Origin: an uncultured Nitrososphaerota archaeon
GTDB taxonomy: Archaea; Thermoproteota; Nitrososphaeria; Nitrososphaerales; Gagatemarchaeaceae
Assembly (NCBI GenBank): GCA_963838925.1
Contig: CAWISW010000003.1
Coordinates: 544,001 to 608,000, forward strand
Reading direction: 5' to 3'
Length of the DNA stretch: 64,000 nt
Below are positions 12,643 to 19,854 of the stretch, piece after piece (position 1 is the stretch's first letter; each line of letters starts with the position of its first letter). The notes below the pieces were generated by a model. The model was not told where the DNA came from. It saw only the letters and a program-made list of their open reading frames with translations, and searched no databases. The position numbers were made by a program, and so were the translations under genes.

Positions 12643-13589
12643 GCATGCCAGCCTCCGTCGTTCGAGGCGGCCTCTTGCTCTGCCTGCGTCGACTCCCCCA
12701 CGAGCTGGAAGAATATGTCGTCGAGCGAGACCGGCCCGATCGAGAACTTGGACCCGGCGACCGAGAGCTTCTTCGATATCGCGAAGGCCTCGTCCTCGTT
12801 CGTAAGGATCTGGACCTCGCCGTTCCGGCCGGTCGTGACCTCGCCATGCGAGACGCCGGGCACTAGGGAGTTTGCGGGGAGCTTGACGCTGTATTGGTAC
12901 CTGATCCTGCCGCGGATCGCCGGAACCGACCCGACCGCGACGAGGCGCCCCTCGCCGAGTATCCCCAGGGTGTCCGCGAGCTGCTCGGCCTCCTCAAGGT
13001 AGTGCGTCGTGAGGAAGATGAATCGGTCCTTGGCGAGCTCGCGAAGTATCTCCCAAAAGTCCTTCCTCGAGATGGGGTCGAGGCCCGTCGTCGGCTCGTC
13101 CAGGAATATGATGTCGGCCTCCGAGGCGAGCACCATTGCCGCCAGAGCCTTCCGCTTCGTCCCTCCTGACAGCCTGCGGTTGAGCGTGTCCGCGACCTTG
13201 TCCAGCTTCAGCCTGGCGAGCGACTCTTCGGCCCTCTTCTTGGCCTCCGAGTACTCGAAGCCCCTCCACATCAGATACGTGAGCGTGGCCTGCTTCGGCG
13301 TCATCCACGAAATCGTTCTCGCCTCTTGGGGGACGATGGCTATCCTCTCGCGGAGCCTCTTGTCCTCTTTGACGACGTCTATGCCGTTTATCGAGGCGCT
13401 CCCCGACGTTGGAGCCAGCTCCGTCGCGAGGATCCTGACGAGGGTCGTCTTCCCCGCCCCGTTCCTCCCGATGAGCGCGAAGATCCCTGACGAGGGGGCG
13501 GAAAGGGTCACGTCCTGGAGGGCGAACGTCGCCCCTCCGTACTTCTTGGATAGGCCCTTCGTGATGAGCTGGTCCATTCCTCTCCTCAA
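12639..13589 (-). CDS. ABC transporter ATP-binding protein
   Basis: GRNGAGKTT, LSGG, LDEPTTGLD and TTHYLEE motifs. Confidence 0.95.
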   Translation of the reverse strand: MRRGMDQLITKGLSKKYGGATFALQDVTLSAPSSGIFALIGRNGAGKTTLVRILATELAPTSGSASINGIDVVKEDKRLRERIAIVPQEARTISWMTPKQATLTYLMWRGFEYSEAKKRAEESLARLKLDKVADTLNRRLSGGTKRKALAAMVLASEADIIFLDEPTTGLDPISRKDFWEILRELAKDRFIFLTTHYLEEAEQLADTLGILGEGRLVAVGSVPAIRGRIRYQYSVKLPANSLVPGVSHGEVTTGRNGEVQILTNEDEAFAISKKLSVAGSKFSIGPVSLDDIFFQLVGESTQAEQEAASNDGGWHA

Positions 13590-13727
13590 TCTCTCTGCAG
13601 TTCGCTCGCGCCGCGGGCTCTATTTAATGGAATCACGAGGCGGCCTCTTGTCTCGGGGCTCCGGAGCGCCTGACGGGGGCGCACTTTAGTAAGGGAGCCG
13701 CCCTGAGGCAGAGAGGCGCCGAGTAAA

Positions 13728-14213
13728 CTGGATGGGATTCGAGCCGGCAAGTACATCTTCCGTGCGGCGTACCTCGTCGTCTCTTTGTTCATCCTGCTCG
13801 TCCTCGCCGCCCCCATATTGGGCGCGATCACCCCTCAGGTCTCCGCGCAAAACGAATACGGCTTGGGGGTAAACCTCCAGACCGTCCAACCCCAATTGCA
13901 ACAGGTCTTCTCCTCGGCTTCCAGTCAGTCCGGCCTTTCCTCCGTGCTCACAGTCCCCGCGTTCAACAACTGGTTCCTCTCAGGGAGCGTCACGCTCTCG
14001 CTCAGCCTCGGCGTGAACGGGACCACCCTTTACCAGAGCCCGAAGGCCACCGAGAGCCTGGCGCCCTTCCATTCCGGGGTCGTCAGCCTGCCCATCGACA
14101 TCCCTGCCAGCACGCTACAACAGATGTCTGGCCAGCAGATTAGCGGAGGAGGGCAGATGACAATTCAGGAGGCGGGCTTGTGGACGATCACGGTGAATCT
14201 GGGGCAAGGTTGA
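13728..14213 (+). CDS. Hypothetical membrane-anchored or secreted protein
   Basis: N-terminal hydrophobic helix. The frame is open upstream of TTG 13785 to a CTG at 13728, so the start is uncertain. Confidence 0.65.
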   Translation: MDGIRAGKYIFRAAYLVVSLFILLVLAAPILGAITPQVSAQNEYGLGVNLQTVQPQLQQVFSSASSQSGLSSVLTVPAFNNWFLSGSVTLSLSLGVNGTTLYQSPKATESLAPFHSGVVSLPIDIPASTLQQMSGQQISGGGQMTIQEAGLWTITVNLGQG

Positions 14214-14220
14214 TCTGACT

Positions 14221-14694
14221 TTGGTGAAAATCCTCAAGGGAGTCGCGTCTGCCGCAGTCAACTTCGTCGGCGTGGGCATAGTGGCCCCGTTCGCCGTGAC
14301 CTATCTCTCTCCGCTGATTTCGAAGTACATCGCGCTCCCTCCGTCCTTCGAGATATGGGAGGTCCTCCTCCTCTTCGGCGCGGTCTTCGCTGTCACCGGC
14401 TTTCTCCAGAGCGGATACTCGAAGGGGGACTTCCCATGGCTGTTCGGAAAGATCGGGGGCGGCTTGGCGGGCATCGGCTTCTTCTACTACCTCTTCCTCC
14501 AGCTGCCGAGCTCGGTCGGGTCCGCGGGGGGCGTCGAGAGCTCGGGGCTCTTACTCCTCGTAGGCCTTGCCATCGCTCTCTCCTACGGATACATGGGCTT
14601 CGACTTTTGGGACGCCAGGCGAAAGAACAACGCGACGAAGGCAGGGAGGAGCGGCATGGCCGGCGCGACCCCACCGGCCCCGAGCGGCAACTGA
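14221..14694 (+). CDS. Hypothetical membrane protein (4 TM)
   Basis: 157-aa hydrophobic ORF directly after the previous gene. Confidence 0.75.
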   Translation: MVKILKGVASAAVNFVGVGIVAPFAVTYLSPLISKYIALPPSFEIWEVLLLFGAVFAVTGFLQSGYSKGDFPWLFGKIGGGLAGIGFFYYLFLQLPSSVGSAGGVESSGLLLLVGLAIALSYGYMGFDFWDARRKNNATKAGRSGMAGATPPAPSGN

Positions 14695-14699
14695 GGATT

Positions 14700-14825
14700 C
14701 TACTTCTTCGTCAGCCCGTCGAGGATTTCCTTGGCCCTGTCCATCCTGATCTTCTTCTCTGCGACCAATTGGTCGGCTATCTGGTCGACCATCTTCCCCG
14801 TGGCTCCCACGGACGCTGCGATGTT
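14700..14825 (-). pseudogene. Displaced original 3' end of HMG-CoA reductase (41 codons plus TAG)
   Basis: Translates NIAASVGATGKMVDQIADQLVAEKKIRMDRAKEILDGLTKK*. It is 24/41 identical and ungapped to the current C-terminus NLAANTGAEGKLVDKIADIMIEERKIRFDRAKELFAELSKK. Confidence 0.92.
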
Positions 14826-16081
14826 TCAAGTGTTGGCGCTTATCAACCTCAGGCGGATTCTTCGGCGTGACCGGCGCCCAGCTTTCGATTGACCGCATGA
14901 TTGATCTCTACGTCAATCAAGGTCGGTCGCTTCACGCAATTTCACGCGAGTTTGGACTCCAAAGGAGAACAATAGCAAGAAATCTAAGGAAGAACGGAGT
15001 GAGACTAAGATCCTACGAAGAATCAATCGATCTTCTGAGAAGAGTCCGTCAAGCCGAAGTTGAGAAGATTAGAACAATGTATTCGGTGGACAAGCTGAGT
15101 TCATTGAAGATTGGCCGTAGGTTGGGGATTAGCGGTTCATGGGTGAGGCAAGTTATGGACAGGTCTGGTATCCCTAGGAGGACTGTTTCGCAGGCATGCA
15201 TGCGATTCACTAAGGTTGGTTTTTCAGGCGATGAACACGAAAGGGCCTACTTGATGGGTCTACGGGCAGGCGACCTAAATTCTGCTGTCTATGGAAACCA
15301 AGTCAGAGTAGCTACCTCGACGACTCATCCGGCAATGTGGCGGCTATTGGTTTCGGCATTCGGAAAGAACGGTCGAGTCAACAAGACGGCTGCGAGGAGC
15401 AAACACGGTTTCGGGTGGTTGACCTATGCATATCTCGACAGAAGCTTCGACTTCTTGCTTTCTAAGACTGTTAGTATCCCTAAGGTTTTCCTAGAAAGAG
15501 AGGATTTGTTCCTTAGCTTTCTAGCTGGATACGTTGACGCCGAGGGCTCGTTCAGAGTATATCTCAATTCGACTCACAAGGCGATGTCATTTCGTATCAA
15601 CTCAGAGGACAGACTTCTTCTAAAGGACATTCGTGACGGGCTTCGAAAAATGGGATACCATGTGTATTGGGCGCTCGCAGCAAAACGAGGATTAAACAAC
15701 GGGAAGAGATATCGCCGAAGCCTATGGTCTCTCGGAATGTTTCGTGAATCCGAAATCATTGACCTGATTCAAAAATTGCCGATTCGGCATGACGAGAAGA
15801 CAAGACAAGTACGGCTGCTGTCTTGGAGCGTAAGAAGGAGTTGGGACATCGTAGAGCCTCGGGCAATTGCACTCAGATCTTCAATAAAGAATGAAGTATC
15901 AAGATTCGTGGGAGAAGCCAAGAAAGTCTATCTCTCGAAGCATTCATTGGCTGGATGATTTCTTCGATAACTCAGCAAACAATTCCTTCGCCCTGTCAAA
16001 TCTGATTTTCCTCTCCTCAATCATTATATCCGCTATCTTGTCCACGAGCTTCCCCTCCGCGCCTGTGTTCGCTGCAAGGTT
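14826..16081. mobile_element. Homing-endonuclease insertion carrying a replacement 3' end of HMG-CoA reductase
   Basis: AT-richer segment bounded by two in-register copies of the Asn codon of HARN (16081 and 14825). It contains a LAGLIDADG ORF and the new C-terminus. Confidence 0.85.
14867..15958 (+). CDS. Free-standing LAGLIDADG homing endonuclease with two N-terminal HTH repeats
   Basis: AYLMGLRAGDL and FLAGYVDAEGSF motifs; HTH repeats SLHAISREFGL..RTI..NLRKNGV and SSLKIGRRLGIS..WV..MDRSGIP; atypical codon usage. Confidence 0.9.
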   Translation: MTGAQLSIDRMIDLYVNQGRSLHAISREFGLQRRTIARNLRKNGVRLRSYEESIDLLRRVRQAEVEKIRTMYSVDKLSSLKIGRRLGISGSWVRQVMDRSGIPRRTVSQACMRFTKVGFSGDEHERAYLMGLRAGDLNSAVYGNQVRVATSTTHPAMWRLLVSAFGKNGRVNKTAARSKHGFGWLTYAYLDRSFDFLLSKTVSIPKVFLEREDLFLSFLAGYVDAEGSFRVYLNSTHKAMSFRINSEDRLLLKDIRDGLRKMGYHVYWALAAKRGLNNGKRYRRSLWSLGMFRESEIIDLIQKLPIRHDEKTRQVRLLSWSVRRSWDIVEPRAIALRSSIKNEVSRFVGEAKKVYLSKHSLAG

Positions 16082-17224
16082 CCGCGCGTGGAGCTTCATG
16101 TGCCCCCTCTGGATGCCCTCGGAGGCCAGGGCCCTCAGGGCGGCGAAGTTCTGCGCCAGGCCCACCGCCCCCATGACCTCTGCGAGCTCGATTGCCGTCT
16201 TTATCCCAAGTATCTTCACGTTGACCTTCGCTGCGGGGTGCACCTTCGCCGCGCCTCCCACAAGGCCCACGGCCATCGGCATCTCCAGCGTCCCGAACAG
16301 GTCTCCGTCCTTATTCACCTTCCAGATGGTGAGCGGCTTGTAGGCGCCCGAGCGGGCGGCGTAGCTGTGCGCGCCCGCCTCCAGAGCCCTCCAGTCCTGC
16401 CCGCAGGCGAGCGCGACCGCGCTGACCCCGTTCATGATCCCCTTGTTGTGGGTCGCGCATCGGTACGGGTCGGCGTCGGCAAAGGCGTATGCGAAGAGGA
16501 TGCCCTCGACGACCTCCTCGCCCCCGAGCGCCTCCTTGTCGAAGACCGCGGTCGCCTTCACCAGCCTCCTGTCTGCCAGGTTCGAGATTATCCTGAGGTA
16601 GACCTTCCCCCCGCTGATCGTCTCGACCAGGGGAGCCACCGCCTCGGCCATCGTGTTCACGGCGTTCGCCCCCATCGCGTCGCCGCAGTTGACGAACAGC
16701 TCTACTATCACCATCGGCCCCTTGAGCGTCTCGATGACCTTCACGTTGAGGTCCTTCGCCCCTCCGCCCAGAGACACCAGCATCGGGTCCTGCTCGTTGG
16801 CCTTCGCGAGCAGCGCCTTCTTCTTGGCCATCAGCTTCTTCGCCGCCTTTCGCGGGTCGCGGACTCCCACCGTCTGAATCTGCCCTATCATGATCGGGCC
16901 AGTGTTGGTGACCTTGAACCCGCCCTTGACCCTGGCGATCTTCGCGGCGTTGCTCGCGGCCGCCACCACCGACGGCTCTTCGATGGCCATGGGAACGATG
17001 TAGTCCTTGCCGTTGACCAGGAAGTTCGTCGCCATCCCGAGCGGGAGGGTCATCCCGCCCACGACGTTCTCGATCATCCTGTTCGCGACGTCGCCGGGCA
17101 GCCCTCCCGTGTTGGCGAGGACCTTGACCTCCTCATCGCTCAGCCCTGCGAGCTTCTGCAGGAGCTTGAGCCTGTCCTCCACGCTCAGCTTGTAGAACCC
17201 CGGAATCTCGGATCCTCCCTGCAT
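15944..17224 (-). CDS. hmgA: HMG-CoA reductase, class II
   Basis: IENVVG, PMAIEEPSVVAA, DAMGAN, THNKGIMNG and EGIQRGHMKLHARN motifs. Confidence 0.95.
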   Translation of the reverse strand: MQGGSEIPGFYKLSVEDRLKLLQKLAGLSDEEVKVLANTGGLPGDVANRMIENVVGGMTLPLGMATNFLVNGKDYIVPMAIEEPSVVAAASNAAKIARVKGGFKVTNTGPIMIGQIQTVGVRDPRKAAKKLMAKKKALLAKANEQDPMLVSLGGGAKDLNVKVIETLKGPMVIVELFVNCGDAMGANAVNTMAEAVAPLVETISGGKVYLRIISNLADRRLVKATAVFDKEALGGEEVVEGILFAYAFADADPYRCATHNKGIMNGVSAVALACGQDWRALEAGAHSYAARSGAYKPLTIWKVNKDGDLFGTLEMPMAVGLVGGAAKVHPAAKVNVKILGIKTAIELAEVMGAVGLAQNFAALRALASEGIQRGHMKLHARNLAANTGAEGKLVDKIADIMIEERKIRFDRAKELFAELSKKSSSQ

Positions 17225-17290
17225 CTGTGCTCTAGGGCCGCTTCCCGGCCGACCATGTATTAAGTCTGAGAACCCGAATCTGTCGGCGGG

Positions 17291-18223
17291 TCAGGACGTC
17301 TGGGAGTCGGCCTGGCGCTGGGAAGGGCCCGGCTTGCCCACTATCCCGCGCGACGACAGCTCCCTCAGGATGGCCTTCAGGTCCTGCCCCCTCCCCACGG
17401 CGCTCCTCAGCATTGACACCGCCTCCTTGGTCTCGCCCTGCCGCATCATCCCCAGGGCGAGCCTGAGCTTCAGCTCCGAGCTGTCAGGAGCGAGGGAGAT
17501 CGCCTTCGAGAACTCCCTCGTTCCCCTCTCTAGGTCTCCCCTCGCGAGCAGCTCCTCGCCCGTCTCGGCGTGGGAGTATGCCTCCTGCACCTTGAGCATC
17601 CCCCTTAGCTCCCTCAGGGGCGCGTCGCAGTCCTCCACGCGGAGGTCCAGCAGCCTCCCCTCCCATGGCGTGTTGGTGGGGACTGCGGACACGACCGTCA
17701 CAGCAGCAGACCTGGGGCCGCCCCCCCTCCTGGCTCCCCTCGATGCCTGCTCTCCCGCCTCAAGTGCGGCGACCATCCTCTCCGCCAGCGGCCCCTTCGA
17801 GCTCCGGAACGCGGCCGCCGTCGACCTCCAGACCCTCTTCGCGCCCACGAAGCTGGCCTGGACGCAGAACCCCCTGCCCGCGACGAACCCCGACTCCGGC
17901 ATGCTGCTCTTGCCCGTGTGCGCCGCGGCGCGGCCCCTCGAGTCGATCACCATCACCTGCCTCACGGCCGGGCGCGGGTCCGTCGCGAGGAGGGACTTCA
18001 GCGCCTGGGGCGGGGTCTTCCCTCCCTTCAAGAGGGCCAGCCCGAGCGGACCGTAGGTCGGCTCGACCGTGCCTTGCGCGACCACTACGCCGACTCCAGG
18101 CTCGGCCCAGAGCGTCTTCGGGCCGACCGAGAACGACTGTGAGACGACGGCAGCGCCAATCTCCCCCGACCTCCTGTCGGCCGCGACGATTGACAGGGTT
18201 CCGCCGAGAGGCATCGGGACCAT
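17291..18223 (-). CDS. DUF1028 (Ntn-hydrolase-like) protein with C-terminal TPR
   Basis: TLSIVA.D...GEIG.AV.S, RQV.VID..G..AAHTG and DLRVED motifs; TPR-like tail. Confidence 0.85.
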   Translation of the reverse strand: MVPMPLGGTLSIVAADRRSGEIGAAVVSQSFSVGPKTLWAEPGVGVVVAQGTVEPTYGPLGLALLKGGKTPPQALKSLLATDPRPAVRQVMVIDSRGRAAAHTGKSSMPESGFVAGRGFCVQASFVGAKRVWRSTAAAFRSSKGPLAERMVAALEAGEQASRGARRGGGPRSAAVTVVSAVPTNTPWEGRLLDLRVEDCDAPLRELRGMLKVQEAYSHAETGEELLARGDLERGTREFSKAISLAPDSSELKLRLALGMMRQGETKEAVSMLRSAVGRGQDLKAILRELSSRGIVGKPGPSQRQADSQTS

Positions 18224-18311
18224 CGACAAGTCGGCTCGAACACCGAATAAAAGCACTCGCTCCGGCTTCAAGTAAGAATAAAAACCGCTGTTTGCCGGCT
18301 GGCAATTCGGC

Positions 18312-18409
18312 GGGCCGGTCGTCTAGTCTGGTCAGGACGCCGCTCTGACACGGCGGATACGCGAAAAGCGTCGCTAAGGTCGAGAGTTCAATTCTCTCCC
18401 GGCCCACCA
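18312..18409 (+). tRNA. tRNA-Val(GAC) with a 20-nt intron at the variable region (about 43-45); CCA encoded
   Basis: Acceptor GGGCCGG/CCGGCCC; loop CT-GAC-AC; insert TACGCGAAAAGCGTCGCTAA; T arm GAGAG-TTCAATT-CTCTC. Confidence 0.93.
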
Positions 18410-18465
18410 CCCTCTCCCTTGCTTCCGCGATTACGTTTTAACGCTCAGGCGCCGGACCTCCCTCG

Positions 18466-19854
18466 TTGGACAAAGTAGGCATCCTGGTCGTCTCCAAGTC
18501 GCTGAGCTCAGCGGCAATCATCGACACCTTCGCGAGGAGCGAGAGGTACTCCACGGAGTTCTACGTCGCCGAGAAGCAGGTCAACCCGCGCAACTTCAGC
18601 CGTGCCAAGGTCCACAAGGTGGTCCCCGACCTCGACGTGGGCGAGGTCGCGAAGTTCGCGCGCAAGCACAGGAATGAGCTCGCCTTCGGCCTGACGGACA
18701 CCGAGGACTTCGTCACGGCCGGGGGGAGGGACGTCGTGGAGAAGGAGTCCGGGGTCCCCATGCTGTGCGTGACGAAGGAGTTCGCGGTCGAGGCGAGCAA
18801 GGCAGACCAGCGTCTCCTCTTCGAGCGGATATGCCCCGAGGCCAATCCCCGCTACAGGGTCTTCGACCCGAAGAAGTACAAGGGCGACGCGGCCGCCGTC
18901 GCCGACCTGCGCGACCTCTCGAGGGAGCTCACCGACGGGTTCGTGATTAAGCCAGACGCTCCCGCTAGGGGGGCGGGCGTGGGCGTCTGGGGGAAGGACT
19001 TCATGACCGAGGACGAAGCAGTCGAGTTCTTCCTGAACGTCTACTCGAAGGGAAGGGTCGTCGTCGAGGAGCGAATCGAGGGGGAAGAGTCGAGCTTCCA
19101 CGCCTTCAGCGACGGGCGCCACTTCGTCCCCGCTCCCCTGACACGCGACTACAAGCGAGCACTTGACGGGGACAAGGGGAAGCTCACCGGCGGGATGGGG
19201 AGCTACCGCGGCCCCAAGATGGTCCTGCCCTTCCTGCCACCATCCGAGTGGGAGCGGGTCGTCCGCATGGAGCGGGACGCCTTCGAACGCTGGAAGGGAA
19301 GGGGCTCGAACCCGGGCCTCCGCGGGATCGTCCTCTACGACGCGCTCATGCACACCCGCGGGGGGTTCAAGATCCTCGAGAGAAACAGCAGGGGAGGGAA
19401 CACCGAGCAGATCTGCATCCTGACGACGATGCTCGACGACTATGTCGACGTGTGCTACCGCATGATCGACGGCAGCCTCAAGGGTATCAGGTTCTCCAAC
19501 AAGGCCTCGGTGGTGACCTGCGCCGTCCCTCCCGGATACGGTGGGGCCCCCTCCAAGGGAGTCGGGCAGCCGACGGTAGACCTGGGACGAGCCTACGCGC
19601 TCGAGAAGCGCGGCGGCGACCTTCGGGTATTCCCGATGGACCTCAAGCTGGACGAGGCTGGAGAGAGGGCCCTCGTCGGGACCTCCCGGTCGGTGGCGGT
19701 CGCGGGGATCGCGCCGTCGCTCGAAGACGCGCACGACACCTCTCTCCTGGGAGTGAGGGCGCTAGGGAGCGGGTTCCGACACAGGGACGACGTAGGCAGC
19801 GCAGCCGACGTCGCGAGGAGCAGGGAGCACCTCCAGAGCATCAGGAGCGCGTGA
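18466..19854 (+). CDS. purD: Phosphoribosylamine--glycine ligase (divergent)
   Basis: VIKPD...G.GV, EERIEGEE.S, DYKRALDGD.G..TGGMGSY and C-terminal HRDDVG motifs. Confidence 0.8.
   Translation: MDKVGILVVSKSLSSAAIIDTFARSERYSTEFYVAEKQVNPRNFSRAKVHKVVPDLDVGEVAKFARKHRNELAFGLTDTEDFVTAGGRDVVEKESGVPMLCVTKEFAVEASKADQRLLFERICPEANPRYRVFDPKKYKGDAAAVADLRDLSRELTDGFVIKPDAPARGAGVGVWGKDFMTEDEAVEFFLNVYSKGRVVVEERIEGEESSFHAFSDGRHFVPAPLTRDYKRALDGDKGKLTGGMGSYRGPKMVLPFLPPSEWERVVRMERDAFERWKGRGSNPGLRGIVLYDALMHTRGGFKILERNSRGGNTEQICILTTMLDDYVDVCYRMIDGSLKGIRFSNKASVVTCAVPPGYGGAPSKGVGQPTVDLGRAYALEKRGGDLRVFPMDLKLDEAGERALVGTSRSVAVAGIAPSLEDAHDTSLLGVRALGSGFRHRDDVGSAADVARSREHLQSIRSA

Follow-up and report, generated by a model that had tools for sequence, protein, structure and literature searches.

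A putative splicing-free homing cassette gives an archaeal HMG-CoA reductase gene a foreign 3' end

Introduction

Residence of a homing endonuclease inside an essential gene is generally taken to require an intron or an intein. Here, we analyze a window of 64,000 nucleotides (nt) from an uncultured archaeon of the Nitrososphaerota (positions 544001-608000 of contig C3 in the source genome, hereafter G000; coordinates without a prefix are those of the window). In this window hmgA, the gene of a class II 3-hydroxy-3-methylglutaryl-coenzyme A (HMG-CoA) reductase, is interrupted near its 3' end by an insert of 1256 nt. Judging from sequence comparisons, the insert is probably a homing cassette made of a surrogate tail with its own stop codon and of an endonuclease gene on the opposite strand. 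The surrogate-end trick has previously been described for fungal mitochondrial genomes; the hmgA locus shows it in archaeal chromosomes, where it lasted long enough to appear in two genera.

The closest described systems are the "gene hybrids" of fungal mitochondria, i.e., mobile endonuclease open reading frames (ORFs) with a carboxy-terminal duplication, reported in atp6, atp9, cox2, and nad3 of Glomus sp. (PMC3630166). The same paper cites further cases in atp6 of Allomyces macrogynus, atp9 of Rhizopus, and cox2 of Mortierella, and partial duplications of cob and atp6 flanked by endonuclease ORFs are described in Endoconidiophora (PMC6279837). In the sections of these reports that deal with the duplications, the order of parts is the one found in hmgA: a gene core, a foreign C-terminus in frame with it, an endonuclease ORF (mostly LAGLIDADG), and, about 1 kb further on, the native C-terminus. 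The same sections agree with our locus in that splicing is not required, the best match of the native copy is the live end found in close relatives, and the inserted end has its affinities elsewhere. In atp6 of Glomus, the native end differs from that of a relative by synonymous changes only (PMC3630166), a pattern that has its counterpart in the old tail of hmgA.

Set against what these sections cover, the hmgA cassette differs in several respects. It lies in an archaeal chromosome and not in an organelle, and its target is an essential isoprenoid enzyme. The fungal ORFs are on the same strand as the gene and often in phase with it, whereas the endonuclease gene of hmgA is antisense, has a stop overlap of 15 nt, and encodes two helix-turn-helix (HTH) units. 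Its lineage is present in at least two genera, and selection on the old tail could be measured between two occupied loci and not only against an empty relative.

Homing without introns is also known from phages. Free-standing endonucleases of T4-type phages cut alleles that lack them and spread with flanking markers by repair, a process reportedly treated as intronless homing by Belle et al. in 2002. Like the endonuclease studied here, they lie beside conserved genes, and their own allele is protected by sequence differences, as we propose for hmgA. Unlike it, they belong to the GIY-YIG or HNH families and are usually intergenic, with replacement of the recipient segment, whereas the hmgA cassette lies inside a reading frame and a second copy of the gene end is kept. 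SegF, SegG, and MobE are examples of such phage enzymes (PMC5867893, PMC2790892). In archaea, a free-standing LAGLIDADG gene in the glycosylation islands of Haloferax has been proposed to promote gene conversion in the DNA around it (PMC5867893). It resembles ours as a free-standing LAGLIDADG gene of an archaeal chromosome and, within the part of that paper devoted to it, differs in having no target-gene end attached, no duplicated end, and another Pfam family (pfam03161). The LAGLIDADG enzymes of archaeal introns and inteins, such as I-DmoI, I-Tsp061I, and PI-PfuI, have the same fold. They ride spliced elements on the sense strand, whereas the hmgA endonuclease gene is antisense and shows no intron or intein signal. 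A literature search of limited coverage returned no endonuclease in hmgA and no replacement of a gene end in an archaeal or bacterial chromosome.

Anatomy of the occupied hmgA locus

The source assembly is of the metagenome type, with 3 contigs and 87% completeness, and the source names of close hmgA homologues point to Nitrososphaerota/Nitrososphaerales. Its hmgA product matches the Pfam family HMG-CoA_red (PF00368) with an E-value (E) of 1.8e-111 and, across residues 4-416, the structure 1qax of the PDB (E 5.5e-141), which is a full-length class II match. The parts of the locus are the following:

17224..15944, minus strand: hmgA ORF, 426 aa, class II HMG-CoA reductase
16082..17224, minus strand: hmgA body, residues 1-381, ending at the conserved GHMKLHAR motif, host-like composition
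14826-16081: inserted cassette, 1256 nt, AT-rich, directly after the HAR codons, between the codons of Arg381 and Asn382
15944..16081, minus strand: replacement (live) tail, 45 codons and a stop, in frame with the body, element-like composition
14867..15958, plus strand: endonuclease gene, 363 aa, convergent to hmgA, free-standing
14826..14866: cassette spacer, 41 nt separating the old tail from the endonuclease start, belonging to the cassette
14700..14825, minus strand: native (old) tail, 41 codons and a stop in an intact frame, without a start codon, host-like composition
14221..14694, plus strand: membrane-protein gene, 157 aa, convergent, without a Pfam match, used as syntenic anchor

An earlier sequence-only reading of this DNA had described an intact hmgA with an AT-richer end of 45 codons, a stop overlap of 15 bp with a convergent ORF, and a start-less second C-terminus that begins at an Asn; all of these features are present. 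The hmgA and endonuclease ORFs, on opposite strands, share their 3' ends over 15 bp (15944-15958). The old tail opens at its Asn immediately after an in-frame TGA. It is identical to the live tail at 24 of 41 residues without gaps, with DNA only 67% identical, and a tblastx comparison of the left and right flanks of the endonuclease gene recovers the duplication (E 6.6e-13). The stops of the old tail and of the membrane-protein gene are 5 nt apart, and this gene adjoins hmgA in nine relatives (G006, G008, G009, G014, G017, G018, G019, G020, and G022, by tblastn) and also in L066, a metagenome contig with the same layout. Given this synteny, the old tail occupies the native position of the hmgA end. 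The 41-nt spacer that precedes it contains a decayed copy of the MKLHAR codons, with an in-frame TGA in G000, and is probably the promoter region of the endonuclease gene.

The composition of the parts tells host-like and element-like sequences apart. The hmgA body has a GC content of 0.652 and a GC content at third codon positions (GC3) of 0.91 (0.89 in its last 135 nt), and the old tail has values of 0.577 and 0.85, the latter also being the GC3 of the neighboring gene. The live tail (GC 0.474, GC3 0.62) and the endonuclease gene (0.477 and 0.50) are far poorer in GC, in a genome with a GC content of 0.61. The place of the swap within the protein also agrees with the sequence-only reading, which had put it in the flap next to the catalytic His. 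In the alignment to 1qax, residue H375 corresponds to chain residue 381, which we take to be the catalytic His, and the cassette junction follows 6 residues later, behind R381, in the flap region.

The locus could in theory be an assembly artefact or a chimera of two strains, a concern raised by the metagenome-type assembly and by the presence of a second strain in one public DNA run (X2). Contigs built from reads of separate public runs nevertheless cross every junction (14576-14882, 15880-16031, 16013-16457, 15799-16022, and 16021-16246), in keeping with the junctions first read from the assembly. The runs used are four, all from one study, and may include the source sample. The same layout is also found in independent assemblies, namely L066 and G313, a genome of another genus of the same family. 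We thus give an artefact practically no credence. The second related strain is visible in run X2 and partly in run X1, where contigs differ in the hmgA body at 16133-16139 and 16382-16460; none was seen crossing the tail junction.

Cassette-free alleles and the sources of the two tails

We searched 40 genomes besides G000 for hmgA, obtained a match in 37, and read 29 loci, none of which has the endonuclease or a second tail. A search of the protein collection with hmgA residues 300-426 listed 120 proteins. Those that passed motif and length filters were joined with the loci of the relatives, L066, and G000 into a set of 116 sequences. The nearest body in this set, P0012 (92.7% identical), has no insert, and its live tail is identical to the old tail of G000 at 40 of 41 residues. 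Old-type live tails are also found in P0064 (39/41) and G009 (37/40). Hence, empty alleles end in the NIAASVG-type tail of the downstream copy, as had been anticipated from the sequence. The live tail of G000 has other affinities: it is closest to that of P0003 (35/41), followed by G008, P0007, and P0008 (32/41). Since these tails sit on bodies that are only 80-86% identical to that of G000, the live tail appears to be foreign and to originate in another lineage of the same genus. The occupied allele of G000 and its empty counterparts provide a concrete pair for the study of homing in Nitrososphaerota.

To place these tails in the history of the gene, we use a body tree built by maximum likelihood from the 62 nearest of the 116 sequences. 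P0012, G000, and L066 form a clade (support 98/85) nested among bodies with a third tail type (99/96). There are at least three tail types, each of which requires at least three changes on well-supported branches of this tree, and the approximately unbiased (AU) test on the body alignment rejects monophyly of the 9 new-tail carriers (p 0.0037, log-likelihood difference 50.9). These two results indicate that tails and bodies differ in history within the genus, the tail types being distributed as a mosaic on the body tree. The scattered types may be the footprint of earlier tail swaps, with later loss of the endonuclease and of the old tail. The cassette moves part of the active-site flap between lineages, and single-gene hmgA trees in this group are therefore mosaics.

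Four relatives whose assemblies have few contigs show an hmgA that extends over two frames or contains several stops, which may reflect long-read indel errors or pseudogenes. These copies are located as follows:

G009:C3:1364738-1366004
G022:C10:33868-35138
G174:C1:988337-989606
G021:C4:52018-53293

Identity of the convergent gene product

The protein encoded opposite to the hmgA end has two N-terminal HTH units above the Pfam cut-offs (HTH_23 and HTH_38), and its LAGLIDADG matches are below them (21.2 bits for LAGLIDADG_3, cut-off 22.5, and 15.9 bits for LAGLIDADG_1, cut-off 23.1). An alignment of 27 family members places the first LAGLIDADG motif at the invariant G135-D136 and the second at G221 and D224, both invariant; position 226 is Glu or Asp in all 27 sequences. 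The profile of these members matches LAGLIDADG enzymes of the PDB, 1dq3 and 2dch among them (E 9e-8). In an AlphaFold2 model with a predicted local distance difference test (pLDDT) score of 93, residues 123-303 show the alpha-beta-beta-alpha-beta-beta-alpha pattern twice. The best Foldseek matches of this model are I-HjeMI, the bI3 maturase, I-AniI, I-OnuI, I-DmoI, and I-Tsp061I (probability 1.00, E 3e-9 to 6e-7), and the structures matched include 2vs8, 2dch, and the I-DmoI chimera 1mow. These data support the initial description of the ORF as an HTH-HTH-LAGLIDADG protein, here a predicted monomeric, double-motif LAGLIDADG-type endonuclease with putative cleavage activity.

Recurrence and rarity of the layout

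The genes of contig L066 are, in order, an ABC transporter, a secreted protein, the membrane protein, the old tail, the endonuclease, hmgA, a DUF1028 gene, and purD. Relative to G000, the endonuclease is 80% identical, hmgA is 91% identical, and the new-type tail matches at 40 of 45 residues over its full 45 residues. The spacers are identical at 33 of 41 positions in a pairwise alignment, and L066 has kept the Ala-Arg codons before the Asn of the old tail. The contig also has a direct repeat of 22 nt (21/22 identical) at the old-tail and live junctions, 1257 nt apart, which is absent in G000 and G313. Its endonuclease gene (L066:3760-4833) contains an in-frame TGA at the position of Arg316 in G000, two base changes away from CGG, and the public gene call ends there, at 317 aa. 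The differences between the G000 and L066 endonuclease genes are distributed over the three codon positions as 45/27/103 before this TGA and 6/9/13 after it, a weaker bias.

The third locus, in G313, combines hmgA with a convergent endonuclease gene (47% identical, E 6.9e-99) and an intact distal tail of 43 codons; its two tails are at L070:1352-1480 and 2629-2757. In all three loci the insertion lies directly after the HAR of GHMKLHAR, and the endonuclease gene is on the strand opposite to hmgA. The protein collection contains 32 relatives of the endonuclease at E <= 1e-40. One of these, P0123, is 74% identical, and its contig has the same length, 243350 nt, as that of the hmgA product P0005. 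The C-termini of the two proteins (..SSTR and ..SSSR) are compatible with the same antisense overlap of 15 nt, and we infer that they come from a fourth occupied locus. Other endonucleases known as protein sequences are P0125 and about 15 with 44-54% identity.

The layout is rare. Among 97 genomes of the family that were searched, 76 have hmgA and two of these, G000 and G313, have a second tail. In a further genome, G320, contig C209 (L071, G320:C209:1-3089) stops 2 nt past the codon of hmgA His379, at the insertion point of the cassette, which could be an assembly fork caused by a tail or cassette polymorphism, or chance. A partial endonuclease gene at the end of another contig of this genome (L078) was set aside, as it belongs to the subfamily found at nuoD and has no tail nearby.

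Integrative elements that restore the 3' part of the gene they target leave a similar picture, with a duplicated gene end. The hmgA insert could accordingly be the remnant of an integrase-type element with a copy of the target end, or a local tandem duplication into which something unrelated was inserted afterwards. Yet its 1256 nt contain a single ORF, that of the LAGLIDADG enzyme, and no recombinase. The divergence of the two tails in DNA and the lack of an exact core repeat in G000 also speak against such an origin, as does the fact that two genera carry the same endonuclease lineage at one codon boundary. Finally, the new tail groups with the tails of other lineages and not with the old tail. 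We regard this explanation as very improbable.

Selection on the old tail and on its neighbors

The old tails of G000 and L066 differ at 19 of 123 nt, distributed over the codon positions as 3/0/16. The ratio of non-synonymous to synonymous rates (dN/dS) is 0.043, at a synonymous divergence (dS) of about 1.0. The probability of at least 16 of the 19 differences falling at third positions is P = 7e-6, and this bias is already present in the first 11 codons (5 of 6 differences). With the G009 live tail used to polarise them, the changes are mostly synonymous, with 6 on the G000 branch (one of them non-synonymous) and 10 on the L066 branch. Only 4 non-synonymous differences are observed, against about 41-53 expected under neutrality since the split, and the neutral share of the divergence is below about 0.09-0.12, which is a rough bound. 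This pattern indicates codon-level purifying selection on the old tail, which appears to be neither decaying nor a passive remnant. The live tail is constrained as well, with 21 differences distributed as 2/4/15. The values for the other genes of the locus are given below:

hmgA body: dS 0.63, dN/dS 0.08
endonuclease gene: dS 0.77, dN/dS 0.14
ABC gene: dS 0.72, dN/dS 0.077
purD: dS 0.75, dN/dS 0.178
membrane-protein gene: dS 0.92, dN/dS 0.209

Together with the mosaic of tail types on the body tree, this lack of decay in the old tail is what is new in the hmgA case. An intact and selected old tail also bears on how long occupied and empty homing alleles coexist. We considered two other sources of the codon pattern. 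A plus-strand ORF (14731..14892) shares its third positions with the old tail, and taking it as the constrained frame gives 5 non-conservative changes, against 3 conservative ones in the frame of hmgA; it was rejected as an improbable, though conceivable, source. An independent small protein encoded by the old tail was also rejected, as no start codon is conserved across G000, L066, and G313.

The constraint could be explained if the old tail functioned in place, the cassette being removed frequently enough to expose the old tail to selection and the gene having two alternative flap tails. Removal might proceed in RNA, by archaeal-type splicing or another rejoining at the boundary of HAR and N, or in DNA, by a precise deletion between short repeats at the two junctions. 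Several observations are as expected under this explanation. Both tails are constrained at the codon level, and the constraint on the old one begins at its Asn codon, the copy of the preceding codons being decayed (with a TGA in G000). An intact distal tail is present in each of the three readable loci, synonymous divergence is equal across the parts of the locus, as it would be for one old insertion, and a deletion across the 22-nt repeat of L066 would restore a gene with the old tail. This repeat is, however, missing from G000 and G313, and the endonuclease gene is antisense to hmgA. A simple comparison of junction duplex energies with shuffled sequences, made with no dedicated motif search, gave no sign of bulge-helix-bulge pairing (-36.7 against -34.4 +/- 4.4, and -31.6 against -30.9 +/- 4.7). 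No intron family of Rfam matches positions 13500-18600 at E <= 1, where the sole match is a tRNA. T-rich stretches after the live stop, on the hmgA strand, may act as a terminator, and working splicing would make a selected surrogate tail needless. Function in place is therefore unlikely in our view. An intein was rejected from the anatomy of the locus, since the live frame reaches its stop 45 codons past the junction and the endonuclease gene lies on the opposite strand.

The locus might also be an old, fixed insertion in which the endonuclease was domesticated, for instance as an HTH regulator, and the old tail is a leftover. The joint divergence of endonuclease and host, the two HTH units of the protein, and the fixed places that sister subfamilies hold across genera, by nuoD and by a ferredoxin-type gene, would all suit such a history. 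A leftover tail would nevertheless have lost its codon pattern, contrary to the deficit of non-synonymous differences reported above. In addition, the catalytic acidic residues are conserved throughout the family, the cassette is rare and patchy among the hmgA-bearing genomes of the family, and the nearest body, that of P0012, is empty. Domestication seems quite improbable on this evidence.

A proposed homing cycle and the points that weigh against it

The homing cassette that we favor as the likely explanation would operate as follows. The endonuclease would cut cassette-free hmgA alleles in the conserved region at the boundary between HAR and N, and the break would be repaired from a cassette-bearing allele, with the hmgA body as left homology arm and the old tail together with the DNA beyond it as right homology arm. 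The cassette would thereby be copied into the recipient. Since a tail with a stop comes with it, hmgA would stay functional without splicing, and the occupied allele is proposed to escape cutting because both new junctions differ from the target. After each event, the tail behind the cassette would be either the one that had recently functioned in the recipient or the copy brought by the donor. The old tail would thus be kept intact either by its recent function in the recipient or by being refreshed through recombination with persisting cassette-free alleles. Continuing activity of the element would fit the purifying selection seen on the endonuclease gene (dN/dS 0.14), its conserved catalytic residues, and the rarity of the cassette.

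A number of observations weigh against this interpretation. Some concern the tails. G008 has a new-type tail without an endonuclease in its hmgA locus, and its genome (88% complete) has no orthologue of the endonuclease at E <= 1e-45. The new-type tail of P0003 lacks the end residues that overlap the endonuclease gene in occupied loci, which hints that this locus may have no endonuclease either. The bodies of these two carriers are 81% (G008) and 86% (P0003) identical to that of G000. The sequence-only reading had held that relatives without the endonuclease should not have this tail, an expectation contradicted by G008, and the new-type tail could in principle be native variation. We infer instead that G008 and P0003 represent the donor lineage, or lineages that later lost the endonuclease. 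Furthermore, the tail groups used in the AU test were named only after inspection of the tree. In G313 the composition is reversed, with a GC3 of 0.42 in the distal tail, 0.64 in the proximal live tail, and 0.72 in the body, and by this measure the distal copy does not resemble a tail native to the host.

Other observations concern the age and activity of the element. The dS of the endonuclease gene equals the range of host genes (0.63-0.92), and the identities of host and endonuclease fall together (91/80, 82/74, and 76/45%, the last being 74/47 in separate searches), which looks like long co-descent and not like recent spread. G000 and L066 are weakly joined as sisters in the body tree (87/20), favoring one ancestral insertion. 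If there was a single, old, fixed insertion, the intactness of the old tail would have to come from a function in place; turnover of alleles supplies no such function, and neither the junction energies nor Rfam pointed to a mechanism for one. The endonuclease of L066 is probably no longer active, given its internal TGA. Homing elements usually pass through a decay phase in their life cycle, and the TGA fits such a phase. Lastly, no joint that skips the cassette was seen in the four DNA runs, where a depth of about 2-6 is uninformative on minor alleles.

In sum, the idea of a homing element with a replacement C-terminus, put forward in the sequence-only reading, holds for the LAGLIDADG fold, the empty alleles, the foreign tail, and the junctions. 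It is complicated by a new-type tail outside the occupied loci and by an old tail that is no passive remnant. A wider and more tentative reading, which we see as possible and not as the likelier course, takes the old tail as the maintained second state of a long-lived, reversible locus and the endonuclease as a natural gene drive that moves flap-domain alleles between archaeal species. The return to the old state would occur by recombination with empty alleles, by deletion across junction repeats, or by RNA rejoining. If so, the scattered tail types on the hmgA body tree would be explained by flap alleles carried by the drive.

The endonuclease family in related genomes

The family of the hmgA endonuclease is present in 44 of the 74 sampled genomes of the same archaeal family, frequently in several copies, and its members outside the hmgA lineage are at most 40% identical to the G000 protein. 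Among 34 loci, 9 are adjacent to nuoD, 17 to a ferredoxin-type gene (in 16 distinct places), and one to the gene of an MPG glycosylase. The nuoD-type genes lie at the 3' end of nuoD, and the ferredoxin-type ones between a 4Fe-4S protein gene and a dsDNA-binding protein gene. The loci assigned to each position are the following:

nuoD-adjacent: L004, L038-L040, L044, L045, L062, L065, L076, L077
ferredoxin-type-gene-adjacent: L005, L037, L042, L043, L046-L050, L053-L056, L059, L063, L064, L075
MPG-adjacent: L003, L051

These places are fixed across genera, and such a faithful position beside conserved genes is the habit of free-standing homing endonucleases. The site-faithful members at nuoD, at the ferredoxin-type gene, and at tRNA-Gln may supply new nucleases with long targets. 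The latter site is that of the closest paralogue within G000 (40% identical; L002:1441-2409, on G000:C2), which ends 12 nt into the start of a tRNA-Gln gene (2398-2471).

We compared the left and right flanks of the endonuclease genes by tblastx at the 5 paralogues of G000 (low-complexity filter off) and at 29 loci of other genomes (filter on), and found no collinear copies of neighboring gene ends. Short off-frame matches rich in Arg, Pro, and Ser around the paralogues (best grouped E 2.6e-9, at C3:751066-752193) and three short opposite-strand matches in L064 (E 5.6e-5) were judged compositional. No AT-rich host-gene ends were found beside the paralogues either (nuoD, ferredoxin-type gene, and MPG). 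Given these loci without duplicated or AT-rich gene ends, the hmgA lineage is the branch of the family that entered a reading frame. Scans for the endonuclease gave 43 pattern matches in genome contigs, none of which was confirmed, and in viral contigs a single match confined to the N-terminal 49 residues.

Upstream of hmgA, between the DUF1028 gene and purD, the window contains a tRNA match of 95 nt on the plus strand (18312-18406; Rfam, 53.9 bits). The syntenic position of L066 (L066:7173-7270) has a tRNA-Val of 98 nt, and both tRNAs are long enough to contain an intron.

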